A DNA stretch of 64,000 nucleotides from Cyanobacteriota bacterium (GCA_019752015.1 JAIEMQ010000006.1:421118-485117); one strand, 5' to 3'; counted from the first letter of the stretch, positions 14,942-35,305 are shown. Made by a program: numbers and translations. The notes: a model not told the origin generated them from the sequence alone.

Positions 14942-14978
14942 GACGTTTCATCGTATCCGATATAATTCGAAACCTTGT

Positions 14979-17724: not shown

Positions 17725-17832
17725 GGTTTCACGGCGCCGCCGAGGTATGAAGGGGGCGCGGCGCCAGGGGAGAACAGTAGTGCGGCTGGTCCCTCAGATC
17801 AAGGGGTTGGTCACGCGATTGCGCGCAAACCC

Positions 17833-18321: not shown

Positions 18322-18349
18322 GCCGTATTAAAGCTCTGCTGGCCGCCGG

Positions 18350-19663: not shown

Positions 19664-19678
19664 TCGCCCGCGCGTGGT

Positions 19679-20191: not shown

Positions 20192-21008
20192 GGACAAGAC
20201 GACGGCAATCAAAGATCTGGTCGCCAATCCCCTGAGTCGCCGGACGTTCGCCAAGCGAGCCATGGCCACCGGCATGATGGCCGCGGTGGCCTCGAGCGTC
20301 GGGTTTCCGGGCGTTGCCGACGCGCAATCGCTGACCGACGTGGACATTTTGAACTTCGCGTTGAACCTCGAATACCTCGAGGCCGAGTTCTACACGGTGG
20401 CGACGACCGGACGCCGCATCGAAGATGTCGGCATCGGCGTCAGCGGCGTCGGCACGCTCGGCGGAACCGTCGGCGGCAGCGTCGTTTCGATGGACAACCG
20501 GGCAATGCAGGTGGCGCGCGATATCGCGAACGAAGAACAGATGCACGTGCGTTTTCTCCGCACCGCACTCGGCTCGGCGGCAATTGCCAAGCCGGCCATC
20601 AACCTGGCCGCCCTGGGCATTGGTTTCGGCAACGTCAACGAATTCCTGACGCTGGCGCGCGCGTTCGAAGACGTCGGCGTCACCGCCTACAACGGCGCCG
20701 CGCCGCTCATCAGCAGCCGCGCGATCCTCGCGTCGGCCGCCGGCATTGCGTTGACCGAAGCGCAGCACGCCGGCGTCCTCCGTTACCTCGTTTACGATCG
20801 CGGCATCGCGGTCCCGCAGCTCGACAACGTCGACGTGCCGCCGCTGGCCTCGCCGAACGGGCGTCTCTTCAACGTCAACAACGAAGGGCTGAGCCCCGCT
20901 CGCACCCCGAGCCAGGTGTTGTCGATCGTCTACGCCAACCGCACCGCCAGCGCGCGGAGCGGCGGCTTCTTCCCGGGCGGCTTCAACGGCACGATCACCC
21001 AGGTGTAA
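20184..21008 (+). CDS. Ferritin-like domain protein with Tat signal
   Basis: AGGAGTGGAG precedes the ATG at 20184. The twin-arginine signal is SRRTFAKRAMATGMMAAVA. The domain reads DILNFALNLEYLEAEFY...EQMHVRFL...FEDVGVTAYNGAAP...EAQHAG. Confidence 0.85.
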   Translation: MSMDKTTAIKDLVANPLSRRTFAKRAMATGMMAAVASSVGFPGVADAQSLTDVDILNFALNLEYLEAEFYTVATTGRRIEDVGIGVSGVGTLGGTVGGSVVSMDNRAMQVARDIANEEQMHVRFLRTALGSAAIAKPAINLAALGIGFGNVNEFLTLARAFEDVGVTAYNGAAPLISSRAILASAAGIALTEAQHAGVLRYLVYDRGIAVPQLDNVDVPPLASPNGRLFNVNNEGLSPARTPSQVLSIVYANRTASARSGGFFPGGFNGTITQV

Positions 21009-21205
21009 GGGCTTCACGCACGGCGCTGCGAGAAGTCCGTTGGCGGCGGCGGAGACCCGATCTCCGTCGCCGCTGTTGTTGTTTGAAGGAATGAAGTGCG
21101 AATCTATTTAGCTGCCGCCGCGATTGCAGCGTTGACGATGGCCGCGGCCGCGCAGCAGGGCGCCAAACCCGATCCGCAGTCGCGGCCTTTGCGTCCGCGT
21201 GGCAG

Positions 21206-22453
21206 TTGACCGGGCGCGATGCCAACGACGCGTTGAAGGTGGGTCCGGGACGGGGCAACTCGTCGAGCGGCGACACCCGGGTGAGAAACCTGCTGGTCGT
21301 TTCAGAAGTCGCACTCGCGCTGATGCTGCTGATCGGCGCCGGCCTGCTGACGCGCAGCCTGACCAGCCTGCGCGGTGTCGATCCCGGCTTCGATGCCGCC
21401 AACACCTGGACCGCCTCCATTGATATTCCCGATGCGAAATACCCGACGCCCGAAGTCCGCAACCAGTTCTTCGATCGCGTCATCGACAGCGTGCGGGCGC
21501 TGCCCGGCGTGCAGTCGGCAGCGCGGATCGACACGATTCCGTTCGGCGGCGGCTCGATCCAGTACGTGACCTACGACGGCCTGCCGGCGATGAAGGACTC
21601 GGAGCTGCCGGTGGTGCAGGTGCGGATGGCGTCGCCGGATTATTTCGCGACCGCGAAGATCCGCTTCGTCTCGGGCCGCGACTTCACCGCCGCGGACGCG
21701 TTCGGCACGCCGCGCGTGCTGATCGTCAGCGAGACGGCGGCGGCGAAGTTCTTCCCCGGCCAGGATCCGCTCGGCCGGCACGTCACGCTGAAGATGATGA
21801 GCGAAGAGCCCGCGGAGATCATCGGCGTGGTCAGAGAGGTGAAGATGGATGCGCTCGATGCGAGCGCGGACACCGACGCCGCGGTCTACGCGCCGGCGGC
21901 GCAGTTCGGCCTCGGCGGCTCGACGCTGGTGGTGCGGACCGCGGCAGAGCCGGCCTCGCTGACCTGTTCGGTGATCACAGCCGTGCGCGCCATCGATCCC
22001 GAGCAGCCGGTCCTCAACATCCAGACCATGGAGGAGGCGGTCGAGGAGTCGCTGGGGCAGCGGCCGCTGGCCATGCTGCTGCTGGGCGCGTTCGCGTCGC
22101 TGGCGCTGGTGCTGGCCACGGTCGGCATCTACAGCGTGCTGGCCTACACGCTGCGCCAGCGCGTGCGCGAGATTGGCATCCGCCTGGCGCTCGGCGCGCC
22201 GGTCAAGGGCTTGCTGCGGATGATCGTGATCGAAGGGCTGAAGCCGACGCTGATCGGCGTCGTCCTCGGCTTGATCCTGGCGGCCGCGCTGGTGCGCGTG
22301 ATGGCGACGCTGCTGTTCGGCGTCAGCCAGTACGATCCGCGCACCTTCTCGATCGTGGCGCTGGTGATGCTGGGTGTCGGGATCGTGGCGACGCTATTGC
22401 CGGCGTATCGCGCGACGCGCGTCGATCCGATCGTCACGCTGCGATCGGAGTAA
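21206..22453 (+). CDS. MacB/FtsX-type ABC permease corresponding to the C-terminal half of an ADOP (duplicated orphan permease) protein
   Basis: A TTG start gives TGRDANDALKVGPGRG...RVRNLLVVSEVALALMLLIGAGLL (TM). A MacB-like periplasmic domain and three TMs of FtsX type follow (REIGIRLALGA...YRATRVDPIVTLRSE). No N-terminal repeat unit is present. Confidence 0.8.
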   Translation: MTGRDANDALKVGPGRGNSSSGDTRVRNLLVVSEVALALMLLIGAGLLTRSLTSLRGVDPGFDAANTWTASIDIPDAKYPTPEVRNQFFDRVIDSVRALPGVQSAARIDTIPFGGGSIQYVTYDGLPAMKDSELPVVQVRMASPDYFATAKIRFVSGRDFTAADAFGTPRVLIVSETAAAKFFPGQDPLGRHVTLKMMSEEPAEIIGVVREVKMDALDASADTDAAVYAPAAQFGLGGSTLVVRTAAEPASLTCSVITAVRAIDPEQPVLNIQTMEEAVEESLGQRPLAMLLLGAFASLALVLATVGIYSVLAYTLRQRVREIGIRLALGAPVKGLLRMIVIEGLKPTLIGVVLGLILAAALVRVMATLLFGVSQYDPRTFSIVALVMLGVGIVATLLPAYRATRVDPIVTLRSE

Positions 22454-22461
22454 TCGACGGC

Positions 22462-22872
22462 TCAGTAATCCGGATCGGCGTTCCACAGCCACTCGACGGC
22501 GTCTTTCTCGTCGACGAAGATTTCGGCGATGGCGCTGAAGGTGGCCTGCCGGAACTTGCGCGCGAGCTGGTGCTGCACCGGCGAGGAGACCAGGTAGGCC
22601 TGGACGCGCGCAACCGGACCGTCGGTAAGCGTGGCGAACGCGGCGGTGTCCGATGCGGACGTGATGCCCCTCACATCGACCAGGACTCTGGACGCCCACG
22701 TCAGCAGGCCGCTGCTGACCAGGTGATCTCTGATCGCGCGTTGATCGTCGAGGGACGGCCACTCGCCGTTGAACGTGAAGCGCAGGAAACTCGGCGCGTC
22801 GCTCGAGTCGACCTCGATGGCGGCGTGTGGTGCGACCGCAATCGCCGGGACGATGCCGGATGCGCTGGACAC
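22462..22872 (-). CDS. Hypothetical protein (possibly STAS/SpoIIAA-like); start uncertain
   Basis: The C-terminal 130 aa of ORF 22462..23133 have coding-like composition (FLRFTFNGEWPSLDDQRAIRDHLVSSGLL...). GTG at 22872 was chosen because it is the first start past the overlap with the zinc-ribbon gene. Confidence 0.4.
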   Translation of the reverse strand: MSSASGIVPAIAVAPHAAIEVDSSDAPSFLRFTFNGEWPSLDDQRAIRDHLVSSGLLTWASRVLVDVRGITSASDTAAFATLTDGPVARVQAYLVSSPVQHQLARKFRQATFSAIAEIFVDEKDAVEWLWNADPDY

Positions 22873-22985
22873 GCACGCAGTGTAGGGCAGCTGAGGTTGA
22901 CTACAGCTCAGCCTTGGAAATAAGCCGTTCCGAAGCGCGCAATTCAGGGAACGTGATTGGCGGATTCCCTTAGCGGCGGATCGTG

Positions 22986-23186
22986 CTACGCCGGAATATC
23001 GTGCGCCAGCTTCGGCACGATCCACGACTGCAGGCAGTCGCGGCACTGCATGGTGATGTTGACGATGGTCGGATCGCGCTTGTCGGTGGCGACGCTGACC
23101 GGCCGCGCGGTGTGCGCGGCGCAGTGCGGACACGCCACCGAAGGCGGCCGATCATCGGGAATGAGGGGCTCGTCGTCGTTCGCCAT
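22986..23186 (-). CDS. Small Cys4 zinc-ribbon protein (66 aa)
   Basis: MANDDEPLIPDDRPPSVACPHCAAH...MQCRDCLQSW contains a CxxC...CxxC pair. The ATG is at 23186. Confidence 0.5.
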   Translation of the reverse strand: MANDDEPLIPDDRPPSVACPHCAAHTARPVSVATDKRDPTIVNITMQCRDCLQSWIVPKLAHDIPA

Positions 23187-23287
23187 ATCCGATTTTAGAA
23201 AATCTTTTTTCGATCGAAAAGCTGAGCGGCGGAGCGGCCGGCCCGGCACCGCCTGACGCCGCGCTACGGACGTGAGATGCTGCTGGT

Positions 23288-23728
23288 ATGAGCAGGACGA
23301 CGTATGCGTTGTGGGCGGCGGGGACGTTCGTGGCGATCGCGGTGCTGGTGGCGGCGGGGCAGCGGATTGCGCCGCCGCAGCAGGCGTCGAACAGCGCCGA
23401 ATCGCGCCACGCGTGCAAGGTCGACGCGCCCGAGGCGTTGAAGGCGGCCGGCGCGCAGTGGTGCGCGATCGGATTGTTCAAGAGCGTGACGGTCAGCAGC
23501 GATGCGGAGAACGTGATTGCGGTGCTGCAGTTTTCGCCGAACGGCGCGCAGGCGTGGCAGATCCAGAGCGGCGGTCTGATCAACGAGTTCCGCTCGCTGA
23601 CGGATCGCACGGCGATCGACGCGAAGGGGAAGAACGTGTCGGTGGACGTGCACGACGCGGCTGATAAACGCATCGCCGCCTGCGCGCGCCTCACCGCGGA
23701 GCCGATGGCGAAATGCGAGGTGAAATGA
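23288..23728 (+). CDS. Membrane-anchored or secreted hypothetical protein
   Basis: The N-terminal TM/signal is YALWAAGTFVAIAVLVAAG. Four Cys residues are present. Composition is coding-like and I recognised no family. Confidence 0.55.
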   Translation: MSRTTYALWAAGTFVAIAVLVAAGQRIAPPQQASNSAESRHACKVDAPEALKAAGAQWCAIGLFKSVTVSSDAENVIAVLQFSPNGAQAWQIQSGGLINEFRSLTDRTAIDAKGKNVSVDVHDAADKRIAACARLTAEPMAKCEVK

Positions 23729-23836
23729 TCCTCGACGCGGATTACGTGACGGCGCGACATCGGGATTGGCCGCAACTCGCGAGCGGGCGCTTCGCTCCCG
23801 CAGCAGATTGCGCGCAATCCGGATCGATCAAACCGC

Positions 23837-26467
23837 TCAACCGATGTTCAGCCGCTGCCGTTTCAGGTAGAGACCTTTCCTCGACAAGCCGAGCATGCGT
23901 GCCGCTTCATCGAGGTGGCCGTCGGTCATCGACAGCGCGCGCTGAATAGCCGCGCGCTCGACATGCTCCACAGCGGCCGATAGCGGCTGATCGATGCGCG
24001 TGATGATTTCGCTGAAGCCACGCGGCACCTGGCCGGTAGGGATGGTGCGGCGGCTGGCGACGATTGGATCCGAGAGGTGCGCGGGCATCAAGACCGACCC
24101 AGACTCCGCGAACGCCACCATGCGCCGGATTTCGTTGGCGAGTTGCCGAACATTTCCCGGCCAGCGAAACAGCACCAAGTACTCGAGCGTTTCATCAGCG
24201 ATTCGAAGCAACGGTTTGTCGTACTCGCGTCCGAACTTCTCCAGGAAATGATCGACAAGCGCCGGAATCTCCTCGCGCCGATCTCGGAGTGGCGGAATAT
24301 GGATGCGGATCACGTTCAGTCGATAGAACAGGTCCTCACGGAACCTTCCATCAGCGACCATTTGATCCAGTTTCGCGTTTGTCGCAGCAACCACCCGGAC
24401 ATCCACGAATTGCGGTTTTGAGTCGCCGAGTGGAAGAATTTCTCCCGATTCGAGGAATCTCAATAACTTGGGTTGAGTCTCAATTGCCGTCTCACCGATT
24501 TCGTCCAGGAACAGTGTGCCGCCACTCGCGGACCGGATCACGCCGGGTGCATCCTCATGTGCGCCAGTGAAAGAGCCGCGCCGGTGGCCGAACAATTGAC
24601 TATCAAAAAGCTCCCGCGGCACGGTGCCGCAGTTGAATGGCAAGAAGACGCGATCGGCGCGATGCGATGAGCGATGGAGGGCCTGCGCAAAGAGTTCCTT
24701 GCCAACGCCGGTTTCGCCTTCGAGGAGCACGGTTACACTCGAGGTAGCGACGCGTCGAATTGTTTGGATGAGTTCGAGCATCCGCTCCGATGAACAGATC
24801 AAGCCGAGTTGCTCATTGGATTGTTCCTGCCAATTCGATGTGCGCTCGCGTTCTCGCTGACTCTCTTTCGCCAAGGCGACAGCGGCGTTGGCGAGGCGTT
24901 CGATACAGAGTAGTGTGGCTCTCGTCGTCGTCGTGGCAGTTGCACTAGCTTCGATCGTGGCACGACCCTCGGAGTTGATCTCGACCTTTGTTATCGACTC
25001 GCCGGAACCTGTGGCGTCGATTAAGGTCGCTGCTTGTGATGCCAAAAGCTGCGCATTGGCTCCGCTCGCGACGAACGCTGCGATTTGTTCTGTGACTCTT
25101 GCCGCGACACTTTCAGGATCGGTGGCGTCGGGTGCGGCATTACCAGTCCCAGTGTTGAATAGTTGCAGTTTTTCACGATCGATGATCTGAGCCTCGGCGA
25201 AATTCCCAAGTATCTCGAAGCTTGTTTTAGCGCGGTCCAAGTGAGCGAAGGCCGCGGCCCTACAGTCATGAGCGACCAAGCCGCCGATGACTCTAAATAT
25301 TTCCGCAAGAACGTCCAACGGCGGCTGCGGCATTATGGAAAGGGCAGCTGCAACTGCTGACATCCCGATATTTGGCTCCCCGGTTAACCCAAGCCCTTCG
25401 GCAATGAGCGCATGCATTCGAGCGAGGAGATTGCGATCCGCCATCTTTTGAATTCTAGGTAACGCTTCTTGTGCAACACGAAGGCCCAAACTTGCTTGAT
25501 TGGATCTATAGAGCCATCGAACTCGTGTGACGAGCGACCAAAGACCATGATAGGAGTCGTGGAGATTTGACTCATCCAAAAGCGTTCGGATAGAGACATC
25601 CCATTTTCCGGCCTCCTCGAGTCTGTCCTGACAGAGGCTTAGCAGCATCAAAGTATCTCGCAATGCGATCTTGGCACTGCCGCGGTCTCGAGCCGCGGTA
25701 AGAGCTTTCTGAAGCCGCTTCTCTGCTTCAGCGAACTCAGCTTGATTAATCAAGATGTACCCAAGAAGAATCGGGAGATTGGATCTTGCGACACTTACAT
25801 CGGCATCTTGTTCGAGCTCAAGTCCGTGACGGAGGGCTTCGGTGAAATCGCCTTCAGCCGCAGCGAGCGCGACCTCGAGATACATTAGATCGTGGCGGTA
25901 TGCGAGGTTCGGGACCTTGGGGAGAAGAGCGCGTGCGGTTTGGAGGTGCTTGCGGGCTGCGGGGAAAATAGCCAACTTCGCGAAGAGCTCTGTCAAGGCG
26001 AATTGAAACGTAAGGGCTATTGATGGATCGCCGATTTGATAAGTTTTGCGCCGGAGCGACGCCACACTGGCATCTGCGTCTTGGGGGCCCAGCCAATGGA
26101 TTTGATGCCGGAAGAAGTTCACGCGTAGGTTGCATTCGCTCCAAAGCTCGCCGGAATTCACGGCAAGTTCGATGCCGCGCCGAAATGATTCCGAGCCTTT
26201 TTCGTTATCTCCCTTCCGGAAGTAGCACTCGCCCAACGTCTGATGCGTGCAGCATCGTTGTTGAATTGAAAGATTGCGGTCTTGAAGGACGCTATGCGCC
26301 TGGCGCAAAGCGTCGTCCCACTCACCTCTTCGAGCAAGCAATTCGACGAGAAGTACTCTCTCGCCGGCTTGAAGCAATCGCCGTTTAGACTCTTCCTGGA
26401 GGGAATCCAGCGCCTGTTTGTAACGACCTTGATCATACAGTGCGCCGATATCTGGTAGGGACGCCAT
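23837..26467 (-). CDS. Sigma54-dependent transcriptional activator with a long TPR-like N-terminal domain
   Basis: Walker A is GETGVGKE, the GAFTGA variant is GSFTGA, and Walker B is LFLDEIG. Other matches are ESGEILPLG, FREDLFYRLNV, WPGNVRQL and a C-terminal Fis-type HTH (RALSMTDGHLDEAARMLGLSRKGLYLK). The N-terminal ~500 aa are helical-repeat-like with no receiver. Confidence 0.9.
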   Translation of the reverse strand: MASLPDIGALYDQGRYKQALDSLQEESKRRLLQAGERVLLVELLARRGEWDDALRQAHSVLQDRNLSIQQRCCTHQTLGECYFRKGDNEKGSESFRRGIELAVNSGELWSECNLRVNFFRHQIHWLGPQDADASVASLRRKTYQIGDPSIALTFQFALTELFAKLAIFPAARKHLQTARALLPKVPNLAYRHDLMYLEVALAAAEGDFTEALRHGLELEQDADVSVARSNLPILLGYILINQAEFAEAEKRLQKALTAARDRGSAKIALRDTLMLLSLCQDRLEEAGKWDVSIRTLLDESNLHDSYHGLWSLVTRVRWLYRSNQASLGLRVAQEALPRIQKMADRNLLARMHALIAEGLGLTGEPNIGMSAVAAALSIMPQPPLDVLAEIFRVIGGLVAHDCRAAAFAHLDRAKTSFEILGNFAEAQIIDREKLQLFNTGTGNAAPDATDPESVAARVTEQIAAFVASGANAQLLASQAATLIDATGSGESITKVEINSEGRATIEASATATTTTRATLLCIERLANAAVALAKESQRERERTSNWQEQSNEQLGLICSSERMLELIQTIRRVATSSVTVLLEGETGVGKELFAQALHRSSHRADRVFLPFNCGTVPRELFDSQLFGHRRGSFTGAHEDAPGVIRSASGGTLFLDEIGETAIETQPKLLRFLESGEILPLGDSKPQFVDVRVVAATNAKLDQMVADGRFREDLFYRLNVIRIHIPPLRDRREEIPALVDHFLEKFGREYDKPLLRIADETLEYLVLFRWPGNVRQLANEIRRMVAFAESGSVLMPAHLSDPIVASRRTIPTGQVPRGFSEIITRIDQPLSAAVEHVERAAIQRALSMTDGHLDEAARMLGLSRKGLYLKRQRLNIG

Positions 26468-26898
26468 AGAATCCCCCTGTTTTCTCGACGTTGACTCACT
26501 TTGCTCCGGCTAACTCCAGCGCGATGTCGTAAGCTTAATGTGAATTCAATTTCGATGGGTTGACTCCGCCCGGAATAAGCTTCGAATCTGGCGATCAGCG
26601 GGCGGAAACGACCGACAAGAAATGAGATGCCTTAAGCAAGATCCTACCGATGTACGCAATTCTTGCGTCACGAAACACAAAGTTCATGACGTTCGGTCTC
26701 GACTAAGCGTCATGAAACTTGGTAGGACCGCCGCACGTCGGCCGTTTCATCGACGTCGCCTTTGACAAGACGCCGCCATTCGACGAGTACGGCGACCGCG
26801 ATCTTTAGCCGCGTCATACTGACCATTGAAGCGCTGACGCTCAGTTAATTGCGTTAGCTGCCGAACGACGGGCGCCGACATAGTCACTCGAATAGAAA

Positions 26899-29238
26899 CT
26901 AGTGAATGAGCGGTCGATCTGATTGCGCCGCGTTTTCATTTGCGATCGTGAGTCCAAGAATCTCTCGAAGTTGCAGAGAGTTCACGATTTCAGCAACTTC
27001 GATATCCGTGCGCTTTGGAGCTTTGGTCGAGATAGTTGGTGCCAGTCCTGCAGCCACGAGATGCTTATGCGCGGCGGCGATGATCACATCATTTGCAGCA
27101 AGTCTGATCACATGACCAGTGTTGTTTGCGGCGGCTGCAATCGCACGCTCCAGTGTGGTTTGCATCGAATCGAACTGCGCTGGCACACTCGGATCAACAT
27201 GAAACCTTACGCGAACAACCGTTGTGCGTTCTGGTGCGTTCTTGTCAAGACCACGAGTACGCCCGGACAGCAGCGCGTCCAGGATTGAATAAATAGCCTC
27301 TCGGTCTTGGGCTCTCGTTCCATCGACGGCCATTAGTTCGTCATGAGCGATCGAAGACGAGAGCGCGCTCGCCAGAACGGGAGCGATCGACTGAATCAAT
27401 ACTCTCTGTTCGAGCCCTATCTCGGCTCCTGCCGCTGAATAAAAGGTGAGAGTGCCGACCAATATCTCGCCATCGATCAATGGGACGCTAGAGCCCAGGG
27501 CGACGCCGGCGCTGCGAGCCACGTCTGGCGGCAGATCGAGCGTTGCATCAGAATTCCAAATCGGCGTGCGATGCGCGGCCACCCACCCCGACAGTTTTTC
27601 GCCGAGGTGGACTTCCGAACCATCGACCAGGATCGCGAGGTGCCCGTCAGCAAAACGGCACTCAAGAGATCGCTGATTGTTAGCGAAACAATATATTGCC
27701 AACGTCGAATAGTTCGTCAACTTGCTAAGCTGGCTTGAGATGAGCAATCCCAAGTCGCCGATGGACGTGCCGGCCGGTGAGGGCCGAACGGAACGCAGAA
27801 GAGAGAGAGCCTTTAGTGGTAGACGCGCATCGACGTCTCCAAGATGACTGGTGGCAGGTTCGGTAGTGACACGGAGTTTAGTGGCGAGATTCTCAATCGC
27901 TTCGGATTCGCTCGCGCTAGTTGCGGCAATCTCTGAGAGCTTTCCCTGCGCTTCAATGAACCTGTCGACAATCAGCGGGTCGTACATCGTCCCACGTCGC
28001 TGCAGAAGGACTGCGATGGCGTCATCCTTGGAAAGCGCAGGCCGATAAGGTCGATCTGAAGTCAAGGCGTCAAAGCAATCAACGACAGAAAGGATACGCG
28101 CCCCCAGCGGAATCGCGACTCCTTTCAGCTTGTCGGGATACCCGCTTCCGTCCCAGGCCTCGTGGTGGTGCCGCACGATCGGCACGACTGGATACGGGAA
28201 GTGAATGGAGCCAAGAATCTCCGCGCCGATATTTGCGTGCTGCTTCATTACATCAAATTCATTCGGAGTAAGTTTTCCAGGCTTGTTCAGAATGAATTCT
28301 GGTATGGCCAGCTTGCCCATGTCGTGTAGTAGAGCCGCTGCCTCGATCGCTTTGATCTGCAAGTCGTCATTGACGCCCACTGCTTTCGCAAGGCCAACTG
28401 CAAGTCGCTGAACTCTACGAATGTGACCATGCGTGATCTGATCCTTAGCGTCGATCGCCATGGCCAGCGTTTCGATCGTCGACAAATACATTTTGTTCAC
28501 TTGCGTCAGGTGCTGGTTGGCATCCTCGATTCGACCAAGCGAAGTCTTGAACGTGAGATAGGAGATTAACAGCAGGGGGACGATCATTCCCAAGGTTGTG
28601 ATGTCTATCTCGCGCGTCTGAGTGACCAGCAGGCCCGCGACAGAAGCACCGCCGAAATAATTGACGCCAAGCCAAAAGAAGTTGTCGCGCCAGATTGGAT
28701 ATGGAGGTCGCCCTTGCTCAAGAGCCAAAGCGAACGTTACCAGCCAGCTATTGACGACAAAATAGGCGAGCGTGAATAGAAACAGTGGGAAAAGAATGCG
28801 TCCTAGCGGCGTGTGCTCAATTGAGTACGGCTGAATCCCCGAAACAGCAAAAAAGACTTGCGCCGCGAGCCATGTCGAAAGCGCTGCTAACGAAACGTTA
28901 AAGATGACTCGGAATGGTTCTCGAGCATGATGACCAAGGCGAAGCGAAATAATCAGCGCGTCCAATAGAACGGTGATCGTTCCGGCCGCCGGTCCGAACA
29001 ACAGCACTGACGCAAATACGAACGTGTCAGAAACTGAGAGGCGTGCGTTGATTTTGGGAATGCGAACGGTGAAAGAACCGGTCAGCAGTGTTAGCGCGGC
29101 CAAAATTAGCCACTGAAAATTAACCTGCTGAACGAAGACCTGCGCAAGTGACTGTAAGGCGATCGTCAACCCGATCGCCGACACAATCGCGACGTAGGCC
29201 CTACCTCTAGAGGAGAGGTTACGGAACTGTTGAGACAT
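26899..29238 (-). CDS. Polytopic membrane HD-GYP phosphodiesterase-type protein with a C-terminal GAF-like region and a possible degenerate GGDEF region
   Basis: About 7 N-terminal TM segments are present. The HD motif is AALLHDMGK and the GYP motif is RHHHEAWDGSGYP (28135-28170). The GAF-like part reads SGWVAAHRTPIWNSD...VPLIDGEILVGTLTFYS. The tail has RLAANDVII where R-GGDEF is expected. Confidence 0.85.
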   Translation of the reverse strand: MSQQFRNLSSRGRAYVAIVSAIGLTIALQSLAQVFVQQVNFQWLILAALTLLTGSFTVRIPKINARLSVSDTFVFASVLLFGPAAGTITVLLDALIISLRLGHHAREPFRVIFNVSLAALSTWLAAQVFFAVSGIQPYSIEHTPLGRILFPLFLFTLAYFVVNSWLVTFALALEQGRPPYPIWRDNFFWLGVNYFGGASVAGLLVTQTREIDITTLGMIVPLLLISYLTFKTSLGRIEDANQHLTQVNKMYLSTIETLAMAIDAKDQITHGHIRRVQRLAVGLAKAVGVNDDLQIKAIEAAALLHDMGKLAIPEFILNKPGKLTPNEFDVMKQHANIGAEILGSIHFPYPVVPIVRHHHEAWDGSGYPDKLKGVAIPLGARILSVVDCFDALTSDRPYRPALSKDDAIAVLLQRRGTMYDPLIVDRFIEAQGKLSEIAATSASESEAIENLATKLRVTTEPATSHLGDVDARLPLKALSLLRSVRPSPAGTSIGDLGLLISSQLSKLTNYSTLAIYCFANNQRSLECRFADGHLAILVDGSEVHLGEKLSGWVAAHRTPIWNSDATLDLPPDVARSAGVALGSSVPLIDGEILVGTLTFYSAAGAEIGLEQRVLIQSIAPVLASALSSSIAHDELMAVDGTRAQDREAIYSILDALLSGRTRGLDKNAPERTTVVRVRFHVDPSVPAQFDSMQTTLERAIAAAANNTGHVIRLAANDVIIAAAHKHLVAAGLAPTISTKAPKRTDIEVAEIVNSLQLREILGLTIANENAAQSDRPLIH

Positions 29239-29347
29239 CCGTGACGGCTGTAAGCATACAGCCTCGACTACTTATTCGCCCCAAATGATCAGCTTTGCCA
29301 TTGCTATACCCCCGTGAAAAATGCTGATTGATTGAGCAACAGTGTGC

Positions 29348-31129
29348 CTAATTGCCCCACACAATAATGTCCGTCGAATTGCCCCAAACGATGATGTCGT
29401 TTGAATTTCCCCACACGATGATTTCAGCGCCGCAATTTCCCCACACGATGATGTCGTTCGCTGAATTTCCCCAAACGATGATGTCTTGGGCATTGGTGTT
29501 GCCCCACACGATGATGTCTTGGCTGGTGGTGCCGTTACCCCAGACGATGATGTCGTTGGTATTACCCCAAACGATGATGTCTTCGGCTTTCGTGCCGTTA
29601 CCCCAAACGATGATTTCGCCCCAAGCGATGTCGTTACCCCAGACGATGATGTTTCCCCACACGATTATTTGTGCGGAAGTTCCGTCTGCCTTGGGCACTG
29701 AAAACGAGAAGGCCGTGGTTTGCTCGCCCCTTACAGGTCGAAGACTGGGCAGTTCATCGAGGTCTGCGAGATCCAAGCTTCCAGCGCCGCTGGTAAGTAA
29801 TCCTGCAGTGGGGATGTAGTCAGCGCTTGCTTGAAGCGCGATCTTCACTTGCAGTGGCGTCAGGTCCGCGCGGCCATCGAGCAACAGCGCTGCGGCTCCA
29901 CTTACAACGGCCGCCGACATGCTCGTGCCACTCATCGAGAAGTAATCGCGCGCACCAGGGCCGTCGATGAAGCGATCCGGGAACATTCCGACTAGTGTTG
30001 ACCCCGACGCCGCTGTCGAGATGATCTTCGAACCCGGCGCGACGAGATCCGGCTTGACGATGTGATCCACCATCGTCGGACCCTTCGAACTCCACGGTGC
30101 CACTTCGTCGTCGCTCGGATCCGCGGTGCCCTGCGTGCGCAGCGCGCCGACCGTAATCGCAAACGGCGAAATGCCAGGCGACGTCACGCTGCCGAACACC
30201 AGCTTGCCTTCCGGCGTCTGGCCGTAGTTGCCCGCCGATGCCACGACGACGATGCCCGCTTTCACCGCGCGCTCGACGGCGAGACAAATCGGATCGTCCT
30301 TGTAGCTCTGCGTCGGCGCCGCACCCAGCGACAGGTTAATGACGCGGATGCCAAGCTGATGGCGATACTTCGTCGCGAAGTCGATCGCTTCGATTACGTC
30401 CGCCGCTTCGCCCGATCCATCAGCGCCCAGCACTTTCAGGTTGATCAGGTGCGCCGCCGGCGCCATGCCGGAATCCGCGCCTTCAACACTGTTACGGAAG
30501 CCGCGCGCCGCGATGATGCCGGCGATGTGCGTGCCGTGGCCGTAGAAGTCCTCGCCGTGCCCGCGGCGATCCGTGAAGTCCACACTGGCAATCACGCGGT
30601 TCTGCAGCGCCGGATGATTGACCGCAATGCCGCTGTCGATCACCGCCACGCCAATGCCGCTGCCGGTGACCTTGCCAAGCGACTTGATCGCGCCCGACCA
30701 CGCCGCATCCGCGCCCGTCACGTCCGTCGTCAACGCCATCGCCGAATGCACGATCGGATTGCCCGACAGCGCCTCGACCTCGAGGTCCTGCGACAACGCG
30801 TCGAGCGCCTGGCGCGACACCATCACAACGGCGCCGGACGAGAGCGTCTTCTTGATACGAAGGCGATGGCGCTGCGCGAGGCGATCGATGCGCTCGACCG
30901 AACCGGAGAGGATGACCTCGACGTCGCCGCCGGATCCCGATTCCAGGTGCGTCCTGAGATCCGACGACAGCCGCGCGCGCCGGGGGCCCGCTTCCGCCGA
31001 AGCGGCAAGCGGAATCTGCAGCACGACGGCGGCCACGACAACGGCGGCGACGTGCCAGATCACCCGCAGCTCGCGGTGCCACCGCGGCGGATGAGTAATC
31101 GACTGTTGAATCGACGGTGACGACGGCAT
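29348..31129 (-). CDS. Secreted S8 (subtilisin-family) serine peptidase with a C-terminal IIVWGN repeat tail
   Basis: ATG at 31129 follows GGGGAGAG. A TM/signal is present (VIWHVAAVVVAAVVLQIPLAASA). The catalytic triad contexts are VIDSGIAVNHP, HGTHIAGII and SGTSMSAAVVSGAAALL. Confidence 0.9.
   Translation of the reverse strand: MPSSPSIQQSITHPPRWHRELRVIWHVAAVVVAAVVLQIPLAASAEAGPRRARLSSDLRTHLESGSGGDVEVILSGSVERIDRLAQRHRLRIKKTLSSGAVVMVSRQALDALSQDLEVEALSGNPIVHSAMALTTDVTGADAAWSGAIKSLGKVTGSGIGVAVIDSGIAVNHPALQNRVIASVDFTDRRGHGEDFYGHGTHIAGIIAARGFRNSVEGADSGMAPAAHLINLKVLGADGSGEAADVIEAIDFATKYRHQLGIRVINLSLGAAPTQSYKDDPICLAVERAVKAGIVVVASAGNYGQTPEGKLVFGSVTSPGISPFAITVGALRTQGTADPSDDEVAPWSSKGPTMVDHIVKPDLVAPGSKIISTAASGSTLVGMFPDRFIDGPGARDYFSMSGTSMSAAVVSGAAALLLDGRADLTPLQVKIALQASADYIPTAGLLTSGAGSLDLADLDELPSLRPVRGEQTTAFSFSVPKADGTSAQIIVWGNIIVWGNDIAWGEIIVWGNGTKAEDIIVWGNTNDIIVWGNGTTSQDIIVWGNTNAQDIIVWGNSANDIIVWGNCGAEIIVWGNSNDIIVWGNSTDIIVWGN
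29351..29668 (-). repeat. 12 in-frame copies of the hexapeptide IIVWGN (one is DIAWGE) with 0-6-residue spacers
   Basis: The tail reads IIVWGN IIVWGN DIAWGE IIVWGN GTKAED IIVWGN TND IIVWGN GTTSQD IIVWGN TNAQD IIVWGN SAND IIVWGN CGAE IIVWGN SND IIVWGN STD IIVWGN*. The units differ at synonymous third positions. Confidence 0.95.
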
Positions 31130-31169
31130 GACGAGTCTCTCCCCGGAAGGCTCTCGTTGATTCGGTGCG

Positions 31170-31382
31170 CTACCCGATCGCGCGCATTTCCTCGACCGAA
31201 TCGAGCAGCACGCGCTGCGATCCGCCGAGCGTCCGGATGGTGCGAAGGCGGCCATCGCGAATCCGGTAGTAAACAGTGCGTCTCGACACTCCCAACAGCT
31301 GCGCGGCCTGCTCGATGCTTACGCTGCGACCGACCTGCGGGTGGAACTCGGGCTGGCTATACGTCAGAGGTTGAACATCCAT
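31170..31382 (-). CDS. Excisionase-type (HTH_17/MerR-like) DNA-binding protein
   Basis: The HTH reads SIEQAAQLLGVSRRTVYYRIRDGRLRTIRTLGGSQRVLLDSVEE. GAGGAG lies 9 nt upstream of the ATG. Confidence 0.8.
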   Translation of the reverse strand: MDVQPLTYSQPEFHPQVGRSVSIEQAAQLLGVSRRTVYYRIRDGRLRTIRTLGGSQRVLLDSVEEMRAIG

Positions 31383-31410
31383 GCGAAGTTGCTCCTCGGT
31401 GCCCCCCTAA

Positions 31411-31428
31411 AGGCAGGGGTAGTGCCAA
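31411..31428 (-). promoter_or_regulatory. Candidate sigma54 (-24/-12) promoter
   Basis: The minus strand reads TTGGCACTACCCCTGCCT. GG lies at 31426-31425 and GC at 31414-31413, so the G-to-G offset is 12 as in the TGGCAC-N5-TTGC consensus. It is ~30 nt upstream of the HTH gene ATG (31382). Confidence 0.5.
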
Positions 31429-31630
31429 CTTCGGGTGGGTTTTGGGCGTCTCCTCTAAGTGATTGCGTAAACAGGGTTTGTTGGTCTACGATGCGGCAGC
31501 TGGACTACCCCCCAGCCACCAGCAATCGAGCCAAGGCGTTGCCCCGGTTGGGCTATAAGCGGGGCGTTTCGCAGGTTCTGCGTGCAGATCGCAAAATTTG
31601 CGGTGTTTCCGCGCAGGGAAAAAACGGCCA

Positions 31631-33406
31631 ATGGATTGGCCGACAGGACAACAAGTGAACCGACAACCGCGGGCATTGCTGAGCGTTCTGCTGATCGGGG
31701 TGATCGGCTTTGTCGGCTGGCGCTGGTACAACAGCGCGAGTACCGAGCAGGACAACGCCACCGAAGTCGTGGTCTCCGAGCAATCGACGCGCGGCGGCAG
31801 TATTACTGTCTCCCTGCGGAGCGAGCCCCGCTCCTTCAACCGGCTGGTCGATCGCAGTGTGCCGGTCGACATGTTTACCTTCCTGACCAACAGCAAGCTG
31901 GTCAGGGTCAATCGAGCCACCCAGGAGCTCGAGCCGGGCATCGCGGAGAAGTGGACCGTCTCGCCCGACAACCGGACCTTTACCCTGACGCTGCGGGACG
32001 GCGTCACCTGGTCCGACGGCACGCCGTTCACCTCGGCGGATGTGGTCTTCACCTTCCAGGCGATCTACGACCCGAGGGTCGAAAGCCTGCTGGCCAGCTC
32101 GATGATGATCGGCGGGAAGCCCGTGACCGTGACGGCCCCGGACCCGAAGACCGTCACGCTGACCATGCCGGCGCCGTTCGCGCCCGGCCTCGAGCTGCTC
32201 GACAACCTGCACCTCGTGGCGAAGCACAAGTACGAGGCGGCCCTCAAGGCCGGGAAGTTTGCCGAGGCGATCGGCGTGGCCACGCCGCCGCCGGATCTCG
32301 CCACGCTCGGCCCGTTCGTGCTGAAGTCCTACGTCCCCGGCCAGCGCATCGTGTTCGATCGCAACCCGCGCTACTGGAAGACGGACACCGCCGGCTTCCA
32401 GCTGCCGTACCTCGACCAGGTGATCCTCGAGATCGTGCCCGATCAGAACGCCGAGCTCGTGCGCCTGCAGTCCGGCCAGTTCGACATGCTGCAGCAGAAC
32501 ATCCGTCCCGAAGACATCGCCACGCTGCGCCCGCTCGAGCAGCAGGGCAAGGTGCGGCTGATCGACGTCGGCGCCAGCCTCGATCCCGATGCGTTCTTCT
32601 TCAATCTACGCTCGCCGTACTGGGCGAAGGACCCGCGCCGCGACTGGATTACGCGCAAGGAATTCCGCCAGGCCATTTCGCACGCAATCGATCGCGAGGC
32701 CTTCGCCAACACCGTGTTTCTGGGCGCAGGCGTGCCGGTGTGGGGGCCGATCACGTCCGGCAACCAGAAATGGTTTTCACCGAACATCCAGCGCTATGGC
32801 TACTCGCAGGCGCGCGCCAAAGAGATCCTCGCCGGCCTCGGCCTGATCAATCGCGACGCCGATGCATGGCTCGAGGATGCGAGCGGCACCGAGGCGCACT
32901 TCACGACCATTGCCTACCGAGGCAACTCGTCAATCGAGCGCGGCGGCGCGGTCCTCCGCGATGAGCTGAAGAAAATCGGCATCCGCATGGACGTCGTCCC
33001 GCTCGAACAGGGCGTCGTGATCCAGCGCATGATCAAGGGCGATTTCGAGTCGATCATGTTCCTCTACACGCAGAGCAATCTCGATCCGGCGATCAACTCG
33101 GACTTCTGGTTGAGCTCCGGCTCCGCGCACATCTGGAACATGAACCAGCCGAAGCCGGCAACCGACTGGGAAAAACAGATCGACGATCTGATGGTCACCG
33201 TGACGAGCGCCGGCGATCAGGCGGAGCGGAAGCGCGCCTTCGACGGGATCCAGAAAATCTTCGCGGAGAATCTGCCCGTGCTGTATTTCGTGACGCCTCG
33301 ACTGTACATGGCGACCAGCACGCGCGTGGGTGGACTGACCCCCGCGACCCTGCGGCCGCAGCTGCTGTGGAATGCGGAGCGCATGACGGTGAGGCAGGGC
33401 CGCTAG
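31631..33406 (+). CDS. ABC transporter substrate-binding protein, family 5 (peptide/nickel type)
   Basis: A membrane-anchor-like ALLSVLLIGVIGFVGW is present. Other matches are WSDGTPFTSADVVFTF, LVRLQSGQFDM and a length of ~590 aa. The start is either 31598 or 31631. Confidence 0.85.
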   Translation: MDWPTGQQVNRQPRALLSVLLIGVIGFVGWRWYNSASTEQDNATEVVVSEQSTRGGSITVSLRSEPRSFNRLVDRSVPVDMFTFLTNSKLVRVNRATQELEPGIAEKWTVSPDNRTFTLTLRDGVTWSDGTPFTSADVVFTFQAIYDPRVESLLASSMMIGGKPVTVTAPDPKTVTLTMPAPFAPGLELLDNLHLVAKHKYEAALKAGKFAEAIGVATPPPDLATLGPFVLKSYVPGQRIVFDRNPRYWKTDTAGFQLPYLDQVILEIVPDQNAELVRLQSGQFDMLQQNIRPEDIATLRPLEQQGKVRLIDVGASLDPDAFFFNLRSPYWAKDPRRDWITRKEFRQAISHAIDREAFANTVFLGAGVPVWGPITSGNQKWFSPNIQRYGYSQARAKEILAGLGLINRDADAWLEDASGTEAHFTTIAYRGNSSIERGGAVLRDELKKIGIRMDVVPLEQGVVIQRMIKGDFESIMFLYTQSNLDPAINSDFWLSSGSAHIWNMNQPKPATDWEKQIDDLMVTVTSAGDQAERKRAFDGIQKIFAENLPVLYFVTPRLYMATSTRVGGLTPATLRPQLLWNAERMTVRQGR

Positions 33407-33413
33407 GCCGCGG

Positions 33414-34379
33414 ATGGGACGCTATCTCCTGACGCGTCTCGCCTTCGCGCTCGTTCTGGTCTTCGTTGTTTCGTCCGCCGCGCTGTTACTGACGCGACTC
33501 GCCCCCGGCGACTTCGCGACGATGCAGGGTGTTGATCTGAGCGTCGAGCAGCGCGAGCAGCTGCGCGAGCGGCTCGGGCTCAATCGATCGTTCGCGGCGC
33601 AGTACCTGTCGTGGGCCTCTCACGCGATCCGCTTCGACTTCGGCCAGTCGATGTTGTATTCGCGCCCCGTCGGCGGCCTCGTCAAGGAACGCGCGCTCAA
33701 TACCGCCGTTCTCGCCATCATGGCCTTGCTGTTCGCGACGGCCATCGGCATCCCGCTCGGCATTTACTCAGGTACGCGATCCGGAATCGGCAGGTCGCTG
33801 ATCCGCGTCCTTTCCGTGATCGGCGTGTCGGTGCCGCCGCTCATCGGATCGCTGGCGCTGGTGTTTCTGGCCGCGCGCACCGGCTGGTTCCCCGTCGGCG
33901 GCATGACGTCGGCGGCGGGGATCGATCTGACGTGGTCGCAATGGATCGCCGATCTCGCCCGGCACGTGCCGCTGCCCGCGCTGGCGCTGGCGATTCCAAT
34001 GGCCGCGGCGCTCGAGCGGCTGCAATCAGAAGCGATCGAGTCGGCGTCGCGCGAGCGCTTCGTGGCGGCCAGCCGCGCGCGCGGCGTCGATCGCGCGCGA
34101 TCGATCCTTCGCCACGCCTGGCCGGTCTCGCTTCGCCCGGTCCTCGGGCTCTACGGCGTGATGATCGGCACGCTCTTCAGCGGCTCCTTCGTCGTCGAAG
34201 TGGTGACGTCGTGGCCGGGGCTCGGCCGGCTGATGTTCGATGCGCTGAAAGCGCGCGACTTGTTTCTCGTCGCCGGCTGCGCCGCGACCGGCGCGCTGTT
34301 TCTCGCGGCCGGCACGCTGATCGCCGATCTGCTGCTGGCCTGCACCGATCCGCGCGTGCGGGCGGGAGAGCGCGCGTGA
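33414..34379 (+). CDS. ABC transporter permease (DppB/OppB type)
   Basis: The N-terminus is MGRYLLTRLAFALVLVFVVSS. An EAA-like region is present (ESASRERFVAASRARGVDRARSILRHAWP). There are six predicted TM segments. Confidence 0.9.
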   Translation: MGRYLLTRLAFALVLVFVVSSAALLLTRLAPGDFATMQGVDLSVEQREQLRERLGLNRSFAAQYLSWASHAIRFDFGQSMLYSRPVGGLVKERALNTAVLAIMALLFATAIGIPLGIYSGTRSGIGRSLIRVLSVIGVSVPPLIGSLALVFLAARTGWFPVGGMTSAAGIDLTWSQWIADLARHVPLPALALAIPMAAALERLQSEAIESASRERFVAASRARGVDRARSILRHAWPVSLRPVLGLYGVMIGTLFSGSFVVEVVTSWPGLGRLMFDALKARDLFLVAGCAATGALFLAAGTLIADLLLACTDPRVRAGERA

Positions 34380-35305
34380 TCCGGCGCGCCGGCATTTTTC
34401 TCGCCGCGCTGATCCTGTTCTCGCTGATCGCGCCGTGGCTGGCGCCGTACGACGCCGGCAGGAAGTTCGACGATTTCCTGCACGCGCCGCCCATGCCGCC
34501 GCATCTCGACGGTCTCGCGCCGGTCGTGCATCCGCTGGTCCTCGCGGATCGCCTCGAGCAGCGCTTCGAGGCGGATCGATCGCGCACGGTCAGGCTGCCG
34601 TGGGTCCAGCACGACGATGCGACGCCGGTGTTCCTGCTGGGCGCCGACGACTTCGGCCGCGACGTGTTGTCGCGACTGCTGTTCGGCGCGCGCACCTCGA
34701 TCGGCTTGTCGCTCGTGGCCACGCTCGGCGCCGTGCTGATCGGCGCGCTCGCCGGGGCATGGGCGGGTTATCGCGGCGGCTGGATCGATGAAGCGATCAT
34801 GCGCGTCGCGGATTTCGTGCTCGTGTTGCCGGTGATCTACGTGGTGCTGGTGCTGCGAGCGGTGCTGCCGCTCGTGCTGCCGGCATCAACGGTGTTCGTG
34901 CTCGTCGCGTGGATCTTCATCGTGGTCGGCTGGCCGTTCGTCGCAAAGGGCGTGCGCGCGATCGTCGCCGTCGAGCGCGGCCGCGAGTACGTGCAAGCGG
35001 CGCAATCGCTCGGCGCCAGCCCGCTCCGCATCCTCGTCGTCCACTTGATTCCCGCGTGCGCCGGACACTTGCTCGTGCAAGCAACGCTGCTGCTGCCGGC
35101 CTTCATTCTCGCCGAGGCCACGCTGTCGTTCATCGGTCTCGGTTTCCCCGATCCGGTTGCGAGCTGGGGAACCATGCTGGCTGGTGCCGGAAACTACAAC
35201 GCAGTCGCAAGATTTCCATGGACGCTCGCACCCGCCGTCGCAATTTTTGCGATCGTCCTCCTCACCAATCTTCTCGCCTCACAACAAACCCCAATTCGCG
35301 ATTGA
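34376..35305 (+). CDS. ABC transporter permease (DppC/OppC type)
   Basis: The GTG overlaps the upstream stop (GTGA at 34376-34379). The sequence reads LLGADDFGRDVLSRLLFGARTSI...REYVQAAQSLGASPLRILVVHLIP. Confidence 0.9.
   Translation: MIRRAGIFLAALILFSLIAPWLAPYDAGRKFDDFLHAPPMPPHLDGLAPVVHPLVLADRLEQRFEADRSRTVRLPWVQHDDATPVFLLGADDFGRDVLSRLLFGARTSIGLSLVATLGAVLIGALAGAWAGYRGGWIDEAIMRVADFVLVLPVIYVVLVLRAVLPLVLPASTVFVLVAWIFIVVGWPFVAKGVRAIVAVERGREYVQAAQSLGASPLRILVVHLIPACAGHLLVQATLLLPAFILAEATLSFIGLGFPDPVASWGTMLAGAGNYNAVARFPWTLAPAVAIFAIVLLTNLLASQQTPIRD

Follow-up and report, generated by a model that had tools for sequence, protein, structure and literature searches.

A conserved gene module in Acidobacteriota combining a repeat-tailed subtilase, a MASE9-type sensor and a sigma-54 activator with a predicted -24/-12 promoter

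The stretch of DNA analysed here (64,000 nucleotides, JAIEMQ010000006.1:421118-485117; "the window" denotes this whole stretch) carries four consecutive genes on the minus strand, which encode a small helix-turn-helix (HTH) protein (31382-31170), a predicted secreted subtilase of the S8 family with a repetitive C-terminal tail (31129-29348), a predicted membrane-bound cyclic di-GMP (c-di-GMP) phosphodiesterase of the HD-GYP type (29238-26899), and a sigma-54 enhancer-binding protein (EBP, 26467-23837). Based on comparison of this region with related genomes, we hypothesize with moderate confidence that these genes form a sigma-54/EBP-driven switch for extracellular proteolysis, which is wired to a membrane sensor. 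The gene and domain content, a conserved promoter architecture, phylum-wide linkage of the parts, and matched swaps of sensor output and EBP input were computed directly.

The names attached to the best protease homologues would place the host of the window in the Acidobacteriota, order Vicinamibacterales, and the gene set is carried by a soil acidobacterium. In soils, Acidobacteria rank among the most abundant bacteria and are major protein degraders, and to our knowledge almost nothing is known about the regulation of their secreted enzymes. The module would offer a concrete circuit in this context, comprising an enhancer, a sigma-54 promoter, an activator and a second-messenger enzyme.

Conservation of the module and of its predicted promoter

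The listing of open reading frames (ORFs) and their translations agree exactly with a preliminary description of the window, in which the four co-oriented genes, separated by gaps of 40, 109 and 431 bp, had been read as a self-contained circuit. Profile searches on the four proteins matched HTH_17, Peptidase_S8, HD_5, and Sigma54_activat together with HTH_8, respectively, as had been expected. The four-gene synteny is found again in related genomes: all five long contigs with homologues of the protease (46-66% identity) display a divergent operon for an Opp-type peptide importer, followed by the HTH gene (where present), the S8 gene, the MASE9/HD-GYP/GAF sensor gene and the EBP gene. Compared with the related locus L001, sequence identity amounts to 87% for the HTH protein, 66% for S8, 67% for the HD-GYP protein, 67% for the substrate-binding protein (SBP) of the importer, and 46% for the EBP; hence the module genes are considered orthologous and vertically inherited.

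When species-representative genomes were scanned with the alignment of the protease, 80 further loci were obtained from Vicinamibacterales, Terriglobia, Blastocatellia/Pyrinomonadaceae and Bryobacteraceae, nearly all of them labelled Acidobacteriota (two metagenome-assembled genomes (MAGs) carry other taxon labels). S8, HD-GYP, EBP and SBP genes occur together at 13 genome loci, in at least three gene orders. One of the other orders has an EBP gene on the minus strand next to HD-GYP, permease, SBP, ATPase and S8 genes and a gene for a short MASE9 protein; another has SBP and HD-GYP genes on the minus strand, next to genes for S8, a MASE9 protein and an EBP. A metagenome scan anchored on the HD-GYP gene covered 19 loci with at least 5 kb on each side, where the tailed S8 gene was found 12 times, the EBP gene 13 times and the SBP gene 8 times, and at least one of these partners was present in 16 of the 19. 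As the linkage survives rearrangement, it argues for function and not only for inherited gene order. Immediately downstream of S8, a MASE9-type gene is located in at least 41 of 71 loci, and the conserved core of the module consists of S8 and the MASE9 sensor, the HTH gene being specific to the closest clade of the window (L001-L007). SBP and permease genes, either divergent or co-oriented, are conserved beside the module. Of the proposed self-contained circuit, the conserved four-gene set thus stands; the Opp importer (31631-35305, plus strand, divergent from the module) is part of the neighbourhood, and the module is not strictly self-contained.

Directly upstream of the first gene lies a predicted -24/-12 promoter, TGGCACtacccCTGC (TGGCAC-N5-CTGC, 31427-31413, minus strand), about 30 nt ahead of the HTH start codon (ATG at 31382, preceded by the ribosome-binding site GAGGAG). 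It displays GG at -24 (31426-31425) and GC at -12 (31414-31413) in canonical spacing, with CTGC instead of the canonical TTGC as the -12 element, and transcription would be expected to start near 31401. The significance of this site derives from its conservation in related loci, and not from the window alone. A TGGCA[CT]-N7-GC motif stands ahead of the first module gene, at the matching place and in the matching orientation, in 10 of 10 related loci, at a chance expectation of about 0.007 per locus for this relaxed motif. The spacer and the flanks vary across 11 aligned loci, in contrast to an invariant TGGCA and GC. L008 and L021 have no HTH gene, and here the element is located 40-66 nt upstream of the S8 gene.

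Further upstream on the minus strand, about 150-170 bp from the -24 element, two tandem palindromes, CGCAAATTTTGCG (31602-31590) and CGCAGAACCTGCG (31582-31570), are candidate upstream activating sequences (enhancer) for the EBP, and pairs of GCA-N5/6-TGC are kept at the equivalent place in L002, L003, L005, L006 and L007. Conserved alignment columns also comprise the block GGGGCAACGCCTTGGC (31530-31545), containing a CAA-N4-TTG box that resembles a binding site of IHF, and the blocks CGCATCGTAGACCAA and CAATCACTTA (31456-31495), the latter being an IHF-site-like CAA-N4-TTA box about 30-40 nt upstream of the -24 element. The palindromes and the CAA-N4-TTR boxes stand at distances that suit an upstream activator (80-200 bp) and IHF sites, respectively, their role in binding being putative. 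At 13 Terriglobia-type loci the region before S8 is laid out alike, with two GGGACA-N3-TGTCCC palindromes, a CAAT-N-ACTTA box (CAA-N4-TTA), and a TGGC-N8-TGCA element at 70-90 nt from the S8 start codon; in Terriglobia-type loci, a conserved -24/-12 element was also sought ahead of the HD-GYP gene and not found. Taken at face value, the succession of enhancer, IHF-like box and -24/-12 element would be textbook sigma-54 promoter geometry. Synteny, the conserved -24/-12 element, and the upstream palindromes and IHF-like boxes all support the earlier suggestion of a sigma-54-dependent circuit that controls a secreted protease.

Joint variation of sensor and activator

Among the module loci, the outputs that follow the MASE9 domain of the sensor comprise HD-GYP-GAF with or without GGDEF, a hybrid histidine kinase (HisKA-HATPase-REC), PAS-GGDEF-EAL, or none. 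The EBP changes along with them. It carries a C-terminal PilZ domain where the sensor is of the HD-GYP-GAF-GGDEF type (L017, L019, L020, L038, L079, L107, L108, L116, L121), an N-terminal receiver domain (REC) at loci with kinase-type sensors (L076, L084), an N-terminal GGDEF(-GAF) in L024 and L052, and a tetratricopeptide repeat (TPR) input in the clade of the window, where the HD-GYP protein has lost its GGDEF domain. The REC-EBPs of L070 adjoin a sensor of the HD-GYP type. Occurrence of REC beside kinase sensors was predicted in advance and then borne out. No other observation speaks as strongly as this co-variation for a single pathway of sensor, messenger and activator, which would end at the S8 promoter. 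The link to c-di-GMP, which had been raised as a possibility, receives independent support from it: sister lineages have an intact GGDEF domain in the HD-GYP orthologue, and PilZ or GGDEF on the EBP. Hence these loci would represent a natural series of joint swaps, namely c-di-GMP with PilZ or GGDEF, phosphorelay with REC, and TPR in the clade of the window.

The HD-GYP protein of the window (779 amino acids, 26899-29238) is composed of a MASE9-like domain (residues 1-235; 28534-29238), the HD-GYP domain (residues 257-421; 27976-28470), a GAF domain (residues 493-626; 27361-27762), and a C-terminal extension (residues 640-779; 26902-27321), which is probably a decayed GGDEF domain. The HD-GYP domain is matched by HD_5 (PF13487) with an E value of 2.6e-39 and displays the motif HHEAWDGSGYP. 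Residues H272, H305-D306, H334, H358-H359-E360 and G366-Y367-P368 are invariant in 16 orthologues, and by domain as well as by metal ligands and GYP residues the protein is predicted to be a c-di-GMP phosphodiesterase. GAF_2 scores 27.2 bits, slightly below the cutoff of 28.6, and MASE9 (PF20972) scores 19.9 bits against a cutoff of 24.3; the orthologues are likewise weak MASE9 matches, and a stand-alone MASE9 paralogue in L019 passes the Pfam threshold with 25.5 bits. With about seven hydrophobic segments, the HD_5 match and the near-threshold GAF_2 match, the protein conforms to the initial account of a seven-transmembrane HD-GYP protein with a GAF-like part.

That account had also named a degenerate GGDEF-like part. 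The C-terminus displays neither a Pfam match to PF00990 nor a GG[DE]EF motif, BLASTP against the GGDEF domain of L020 gives no alignment, and hhalign against GGDEF returns an E value of 3.4e-4 at a probability of 38%. On the other hand, GGDEF is intact in Terriglobia orthologues (2e-39 in L020), the orthologues of L008 and L021 keep the DxxTGLxN start motif and have lost the active site, the domain is barely recognisable in the window and in L001, and there is no extension at all in L004, L005 and L009. A decayed GGDEF remnant is therefore plausible, with weak and indirect support from the series of orthologues and from hhalign, but the region does not qualify as a GGDEF domain.

The architecture MASE9-HD-GYP-GAF-GGDEF was described by Galperin and Chou (bioRxiv 10.1101/2021.11.05.467447), who suggest that the MASE9 ligand binds within the membrane and report no such ligand; in the parts considered here, the article makes no mention of a protease, EBP or Opp neighbourhood. 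Compared with the proteins described there, the window protein shares the domain order, the seven hydrophobic segments and the intact HD-GYP residues; it differs by the missing recognisable GGDEF domain and by a MASE9 score below the Pfam cutoff, and Terriglobia orthologues display the full architecture, GGDEF included. Partnership with a subtilase would be the first biological context for the orphan MASE9 domain. Directly upstream of the HD-GYP start codon there is a perfect 7-bp hairpin (GGCTGTA-TGCT-TACAGCC, 29240-29262, minus strand) without a T-run behind it, which could affect translation or read-through from S8.

The EBP (876 amino acids, 23837-26467) displays the features of an AAA+ sigma-54 activator, namely Walker A and B motifs, a GAFTGA-type loop and a C-terminal Fis-type HTH. 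It is matched by Sigma54_activat (PF00158, 5.6e-64), AAA_lid_14 and HTH_8 (2.6e-10), and carries the motifs GETGVGKE, GSFTGA (a variant of GAFTGA in which F and T are kept), LFLDE, and REDLFYRL in the R-finger region. The AAA+ domain occupies residues 557-723 (24299-24799) and is followed by the lid domain; HTH_8 spans residues 833-872 (23852-23971). Residues 1 to about 530 (24878-26467) match consensus TPR proteins with an E value of 2.6e-26, in agreement with the TPR-like N-terminal input that had been noticed earlier. Among 48 module-linked EBPs (loci L017-L152 and the window), the loop that contacts sigma-54 reads GAFSGA instead of GAFTGA in 14, and GSFTGA in 3, that of the window included. 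L002 (14164-19703) holds two tandem TPR-EBP genes after the HD-GYP gene, the first of which is fragmented; this looks like the product of a frameshift-prone long-read assembly.

The HTH protein (70 amino acids, 31170-31382), encoded by the first gene after the promoter, matches HTH_17 (E = 3.5e-10) and the excisionase family TIGR01764 (4e-10), and its HTH resembles the Fis-type HTH of the EBP (HTH_8 at 27.5 bits, 89% positives over 18 residues). As a speculation from this resemblance, the protein might compete with the EBP at the enhancer. A role as true excisionase (Xis) was considered and set aside: the fold matches, but there is no adjacent integrase among the scanned ORFs, attachment sites having been outside the search. 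It is best regarded as a putative small DNA-binding protein, rather than as a demonstrable excisionase, since its gene follows a predicted sigma-54 promoter and keeps its place on the chromosome in relatives.

The subtilase and its C-terminal repeats

The S8 protein (593 amino acids, 29348-31129) is matched by Peptidase_S8 (PF00082) with an E value of 1.9e-50, and its catalytic triad D165/H198/S403 in D-H-S order as well as the oxyanion residue N301 are invariant in 41 homologues. A signal peptide is predicted for about residues 1-46 with the cleavage site ASA|EA, followed by an I9-like prodomain (residues about 50-125) and the catalytic domain (residues 156-437; 29819-30664). AlphaFold2 models prodomain and catalytic domain with a per-residue confidence (pLDDT) of 80-97.

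The C-terminal tail (29351-29677, minus strand) is made of 12 tandem units D/E-I-I-V-W-G-N, irregularly spaced at 6-12 amino acids, and the protein ends in WGN. Units with W-G are found in 83 of the 120 top homologues, and a motif-agnostic detector finds a repeat tail in 67 of 75 complete S8 proteins. The tail that had drawn attention as an unfamiliar one is thus present and matches no Pfam family, but it is common across the family and not unique to the window protein. Relatives of the Blastocatellia type carry hexapeptide arrays without W (DGVITG, DGVLVG, DAILAS), which had at first been scored as tail-less. For this reason an association of tail versus no tail with HD-GYP (p = 7e-4) was withdrawn; with the motif-agnostic detector p is 1.0, with hardly any tail-less group left. 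Tail units are 83% identical within a protein and 59% identical between proteins, their periods range from 6 to 12 residues, paralogues of one genome carry different units, and 35 of 88 proteins stop directly after a unit.

Regular-period tails of relatives match repeat families above threshold, namely Hexapep (6 residues), the grass ice-binding beta-roll LbR_Ice_bind (7 residues) and RTX (9 residues), the RTX model being matched by the 9-residue repeats of one homologue. The tail of the window protein has no match in Pfam at E<=1, these three families included. AlphaFold2 on the full protein with an alignment gives no confident fold of the tail (pLDDT <40), and the tail alone, modelled as a single sequence, is all-beta with a predicted TM score (pTM) of 0.69. 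Foldseek comparison of this model with the PDB yields nothing below E 0.1, and the weak matches are nearly all beta-helices. These models suggest that the tail is probably a beta-solenoid-like appendage, for which anchoring, binding of matrix or substrate, and self-association are candidate roles. This C-terminal repeat appendage on proteases is widespread and undescribed. At 29271-29300 (minus strand), 48 nt after the S8 stop codon and in another frame, a mini-ORF reads MAKLIIWGE, in which LIIWGE resembles a tail unit; it is probably the relic of a longer repeat array and not a gene.

Proposed mechanism and competing explanations

This data may suggest a mechanism in which the TPR-EBP, bound to the two palindromes some 150 bp upstream, opens the -24/-12 promoter with the aid of DNA bending at the IHF-like boxes, so as to drive the HTH and S8 genes, possibly with read-through into the HD-GYP and EBP genes. 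The pre-pro-subtilase would be exported by Sec, shed its prodomain, and carry the beta-solenoid-like repeat tail. MASE9-HD-GYP-GAF would sense an envelope or membrane cue that is tied to the protease or its products and lower c-di-GMP, which in turn would feed back on the activator, while the divergent Opp system would import released peptides. From comparative genomics we infer that the EBP binds DNA, that transcription depends on sigma-54, that the protease is secreted, that the HD-GYP protein acts as a phosphodiesterase, and what MASE9 senses; the physiological role that the same comparisons would suggest is peptide scavenging or matrix remodelling.

Several points weigh against this model. 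The 431-bp spacer before the EBP gene (26468-26898, low in GC) argues against one obligatory four-gene transcript in the window, and it is an exception, as most relatives have 0-120 bp at this place. The -24/-12 site is the only exact TGGCAC-N6-TGC in the window, in line with the preliminary description, which had found no other correctly spaced sigma-54-type promoter there, but one such site per window is at chance level in Markov simulations (mean 0.65 expected, P>=1 = 0.48), and this part of the claim is not significant from the window alone. A generic sigma-54 score, applied to all S8 upstream regions versus coding controls, does not discriminate in GC-rich DNA, and beyond the close clade the sigma-54 sites rest on positional consistency in alignments. 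No rpoN gene was found among the window ORFs scanned. The loci compared are MAG contigs and are not phylogenetically independent, the linkage counts are lower bounds since the orthologue hidden Markov models were built from five sequences, and about a third of the family loci are without one or more partners. The main gap in the model is the coupling of c-di-GMP to the TPR-EBP in the clade of the window, as this EBP has no known c-di-GMP-binding domain.

The protease might stand upstream of the pathway as well as being its output, in that S8 makes or processes the cue of MASE9, for instance through cleavage of an envelope protein or of a precursor outside the cell. Some support for this idea comes from other bacteria, in which signals arise through the action of secreted subtilases (such as PopC in Myxococcus, or in the processing of Phr in Bacillus). 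S8 and MASE9 are the most conserved adjacent pair, which persists while the output domain is swapped, in 14 loci the gene after S8 encodes a stand-alone MASE9 paralogue, and binding of the ligand within the membrane, as suggested by Galperin and Chou, would fit as well. However, the module encodes no candidate substrate, the constant presence of the Opp importer suits nutrition at least equally, and this explanation overlaps with the sigma-54 switch proposed above to an extent that makes the two hard to tell apart by sequence alone; we consider it unlikely. Alternatively, the genes may be independent and only co-located, with S8 and Opp as a peptide-nutrition locus and HD-GYP and EBP merely nearby, the EBP regulating other targets or the Opp operon. 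The module keeps its chromosomal position in Vicinamibacterales with the same M48, DHDPS, M1 and DAP_DH neighbours, wherefore part of the synteny is simply inherited, and the 431-bp spacer points in the same direction. Yet the parts stay together in at least three gene orders and in different classes, the input of the EBP varies jointly with the output of the sensor, and the conserved -24/-12 element points towards HTH and S8 and not towards SBP, so that mere co-location appears distinctly improbable.

The repeat tail itself invites a further explanation, namely that it serves as a precursor with many copies of a unit and is cleaved to short hydrophobic peptides (such as xxDIIVW). These would act as autoinducer, with MASE9 as their sensor in the membrane and/or with uptake by Opp and binding to the TPR of the EBP, and would thereby close a positive loop. 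The units are uniform within a protein and differ between proteins and between paralogues of one genome, many proteins end directly after a unit, the variable spacing suits a regular solenoid poorly, and AlphaFold2 with an alignment yields no fold of the tail. I-I-V-W has hydrophobic residues at P4 and P1, which subtilases prefer, and this adds to the case; a parallel to the logic of RRNPP systems exists in that Opp, a TPR receptor and a secreted S8 protease occur together. On the other side stand the matches of regular-period tails of relatives to known beta-repeat families, the all-beta model of the tail alone, and the restriction of the TPR input to one clade, the PilZ and REC inputs of other clades not binding peptides. 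Such a peptide cassette is thus very doubtful. There is likewise a slim chance that S8 carries its own signal, the near-identical hydrophobic units of the tail being cut, possibly by S8 itself, into numerous copies of a short lineage-specific peptide, which MASE9 would sense in the membrane and/or Opp would import for binding by the TPR-EBP, in a sigma-54 positive loop. If true, this would be a single-locus quorum-sensing-like system in Acidobacteria and would provide the first class of ligand for MASE9.

Recent acquisition as a mobile island, instead of a native circuit, was considered in view of the excisionase-type gene and of a low-GC block (about 23.9-29.8 kb), which comprises the EBP gene, the HD-GYP gene and the tail and has a GC of 0.50-0.58, down from 0.65; in L001, fragments of IS21 and of an integrase follow the EBP gene. 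The block leaves out the HTH gene and most of S8, however, and no integrase was seen beside the module in ORF scans, attachment repeats and tRNA genes being outside the scope of these scans. Orthologues occupy the same chromosomal site, with identities to L001 that track those of their neighbours (S8 66%, HD-GYP 67%, SBP 67%). In all five lineages compared (window 26899-29238; L001 7394-9733; L003 12281-13690; L004 11987-13933; L005 11929-13779), the HD-GYP gene has a GC content of 0.54-0.58 and a GC content at third codon positions (GC3) of 0.58-0.68, at a host GC of 0.61-0.68 and a GC3 of neighbouring genes of 0.72-0.90. The block is therefore poor evidence of recent transfer, as the HD-GYP gene is low in GC in every lineage regardless of host GC; the EBP gene is low in GC in the window (0.56) and not in L001, L003 and L005. 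We regard recent acquisition as exceedingly improbable.

Each component of the proposed sigma-54 switch belongs to a known family, and the logic of their combination resembles known c-di-GMP/EBP signalling. In the searchable literature no prior description was found of an S8-MASE9-EBP module or of the S8 repeat tail, in line with the earlier statement that the gene combination is not a described system. FleQ of Pseudomonas, VpsR of Vibrio and EpsI/Nla24 of Myxococcus are c-di-GMP-responsive enhancer-binding proteins, which bind c-di-GMP in or near the AAA+ or REC domain and control flagella or exopolysaccharide. Likewise, an AAA+ EBP would here integrate c-di-GMP signalling into transcription; however, the sister lineages use a fused PilZ or GGDEF and the window a TPR input, and the predicted target is a subtilase gene. 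In the LapD/LapG system, the cysteine protease LapG is regulated after translation, by sequestration, and its substrate is an RTX adhesin, which is a different protein. In common with the module, this system links a c-di-GMP circuit to a protease outside the cytoplasm and to a protein rich in repeats (beta-roll), whereas control is here predicted to be transcriptional (sigma-54), the protease is of the S8 type, and the repeats are on the protease itself.

Serralysins of the AprA type are metalloproteases that are secreted by the type I pathway without a signal peptide and carry a C-terminal RTX beta-roll. They resemble the window protein in that a protease domain is followed by short tandem repeats, which form a beta-solenoid in the serralysins and probably a beta-solenoid-like structure here, and differ in that the latter is an S8 protease with a predicted Sec signal peptide and an irregularly spaced tail that matches no repeat family. 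In RRNPP signalling (Rap/NprR/PlcR, Phr peptides, Opp), the regulators are HTH-TPR or phosphatase-TPR proteins. The module shares with it a secreted subtilase, an Opp importer and a cytoplasmic TPR-containing regulator, but this regulator is a sigma-54 AAA+ activator, and the TPR input is found in one clade only. No RRNPP propeptide gene is present in the module, the only short ORF (29300-29271) being the probable out-of-frame repeat relic. The resemblance is one of analogy and not of membership.

In the divergent Opp operon on the plus strand, the SBP_bac_5 gene is listed as the ORF 31598-33406, with a likely start at ATG 31631 or GTG 31655, and is followed by an Opp permease gene (33414-34379) and an OppC-type permease gene (about 34376-35305). 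A terminator-like hairpin with T-run at 31642-31625 (minus strand), obtained in a consensus scan, falls within what is probably the start of the SBP coding region and was rejected as a probable non-terminator. Rfam searches with the window and its intergenic regions gave no match; the 431-bp spacer likewise has no Rfam match and no sigma-70-like site on the minus strand.

The flanks of the window are ordinary chromosomal genes. Directly downstream of the EBP gene in L001, IS21 IstB and phage-integrase fragments are located at 12663-13242, and the EBP end of the module may be a hotspot of rearrangement. M1 peptidase and DAP_DH genes directly abut the EBP gene in L003 and L004; in the window, about 8 kb (16000-23836) separate the EBP gene from DAP_DH (14859-15977) and Peptidase_M1 (12923-14941). 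This segment looks like an insertion relative to the relatives and contains a GAF-histidine kinase, a NarL-type response regulator, a MacB/FtsX permease, and a stretch without convincing genes. At 22460-23836, long minus-strand ORFs are rich in Ala, Arg, Cys and His and have no family match, and the GC skew is strongly positive (0.1-0.18). The ORFs 23152-23817 and 22462-23133 were considered as further module genes and rejected, their translations looking off-frame and matching no family. Further away, two divergent genes (4580-8350, minus strand; 8376-11165, plus strand) encode very large proteins that combine a membrane part resembling MFS/TLC ATP-ADP transporters with HEAT repeats, the former protein having two cyclic-nucleotide-binding domains in addition; the architecture of this pair is unusual.

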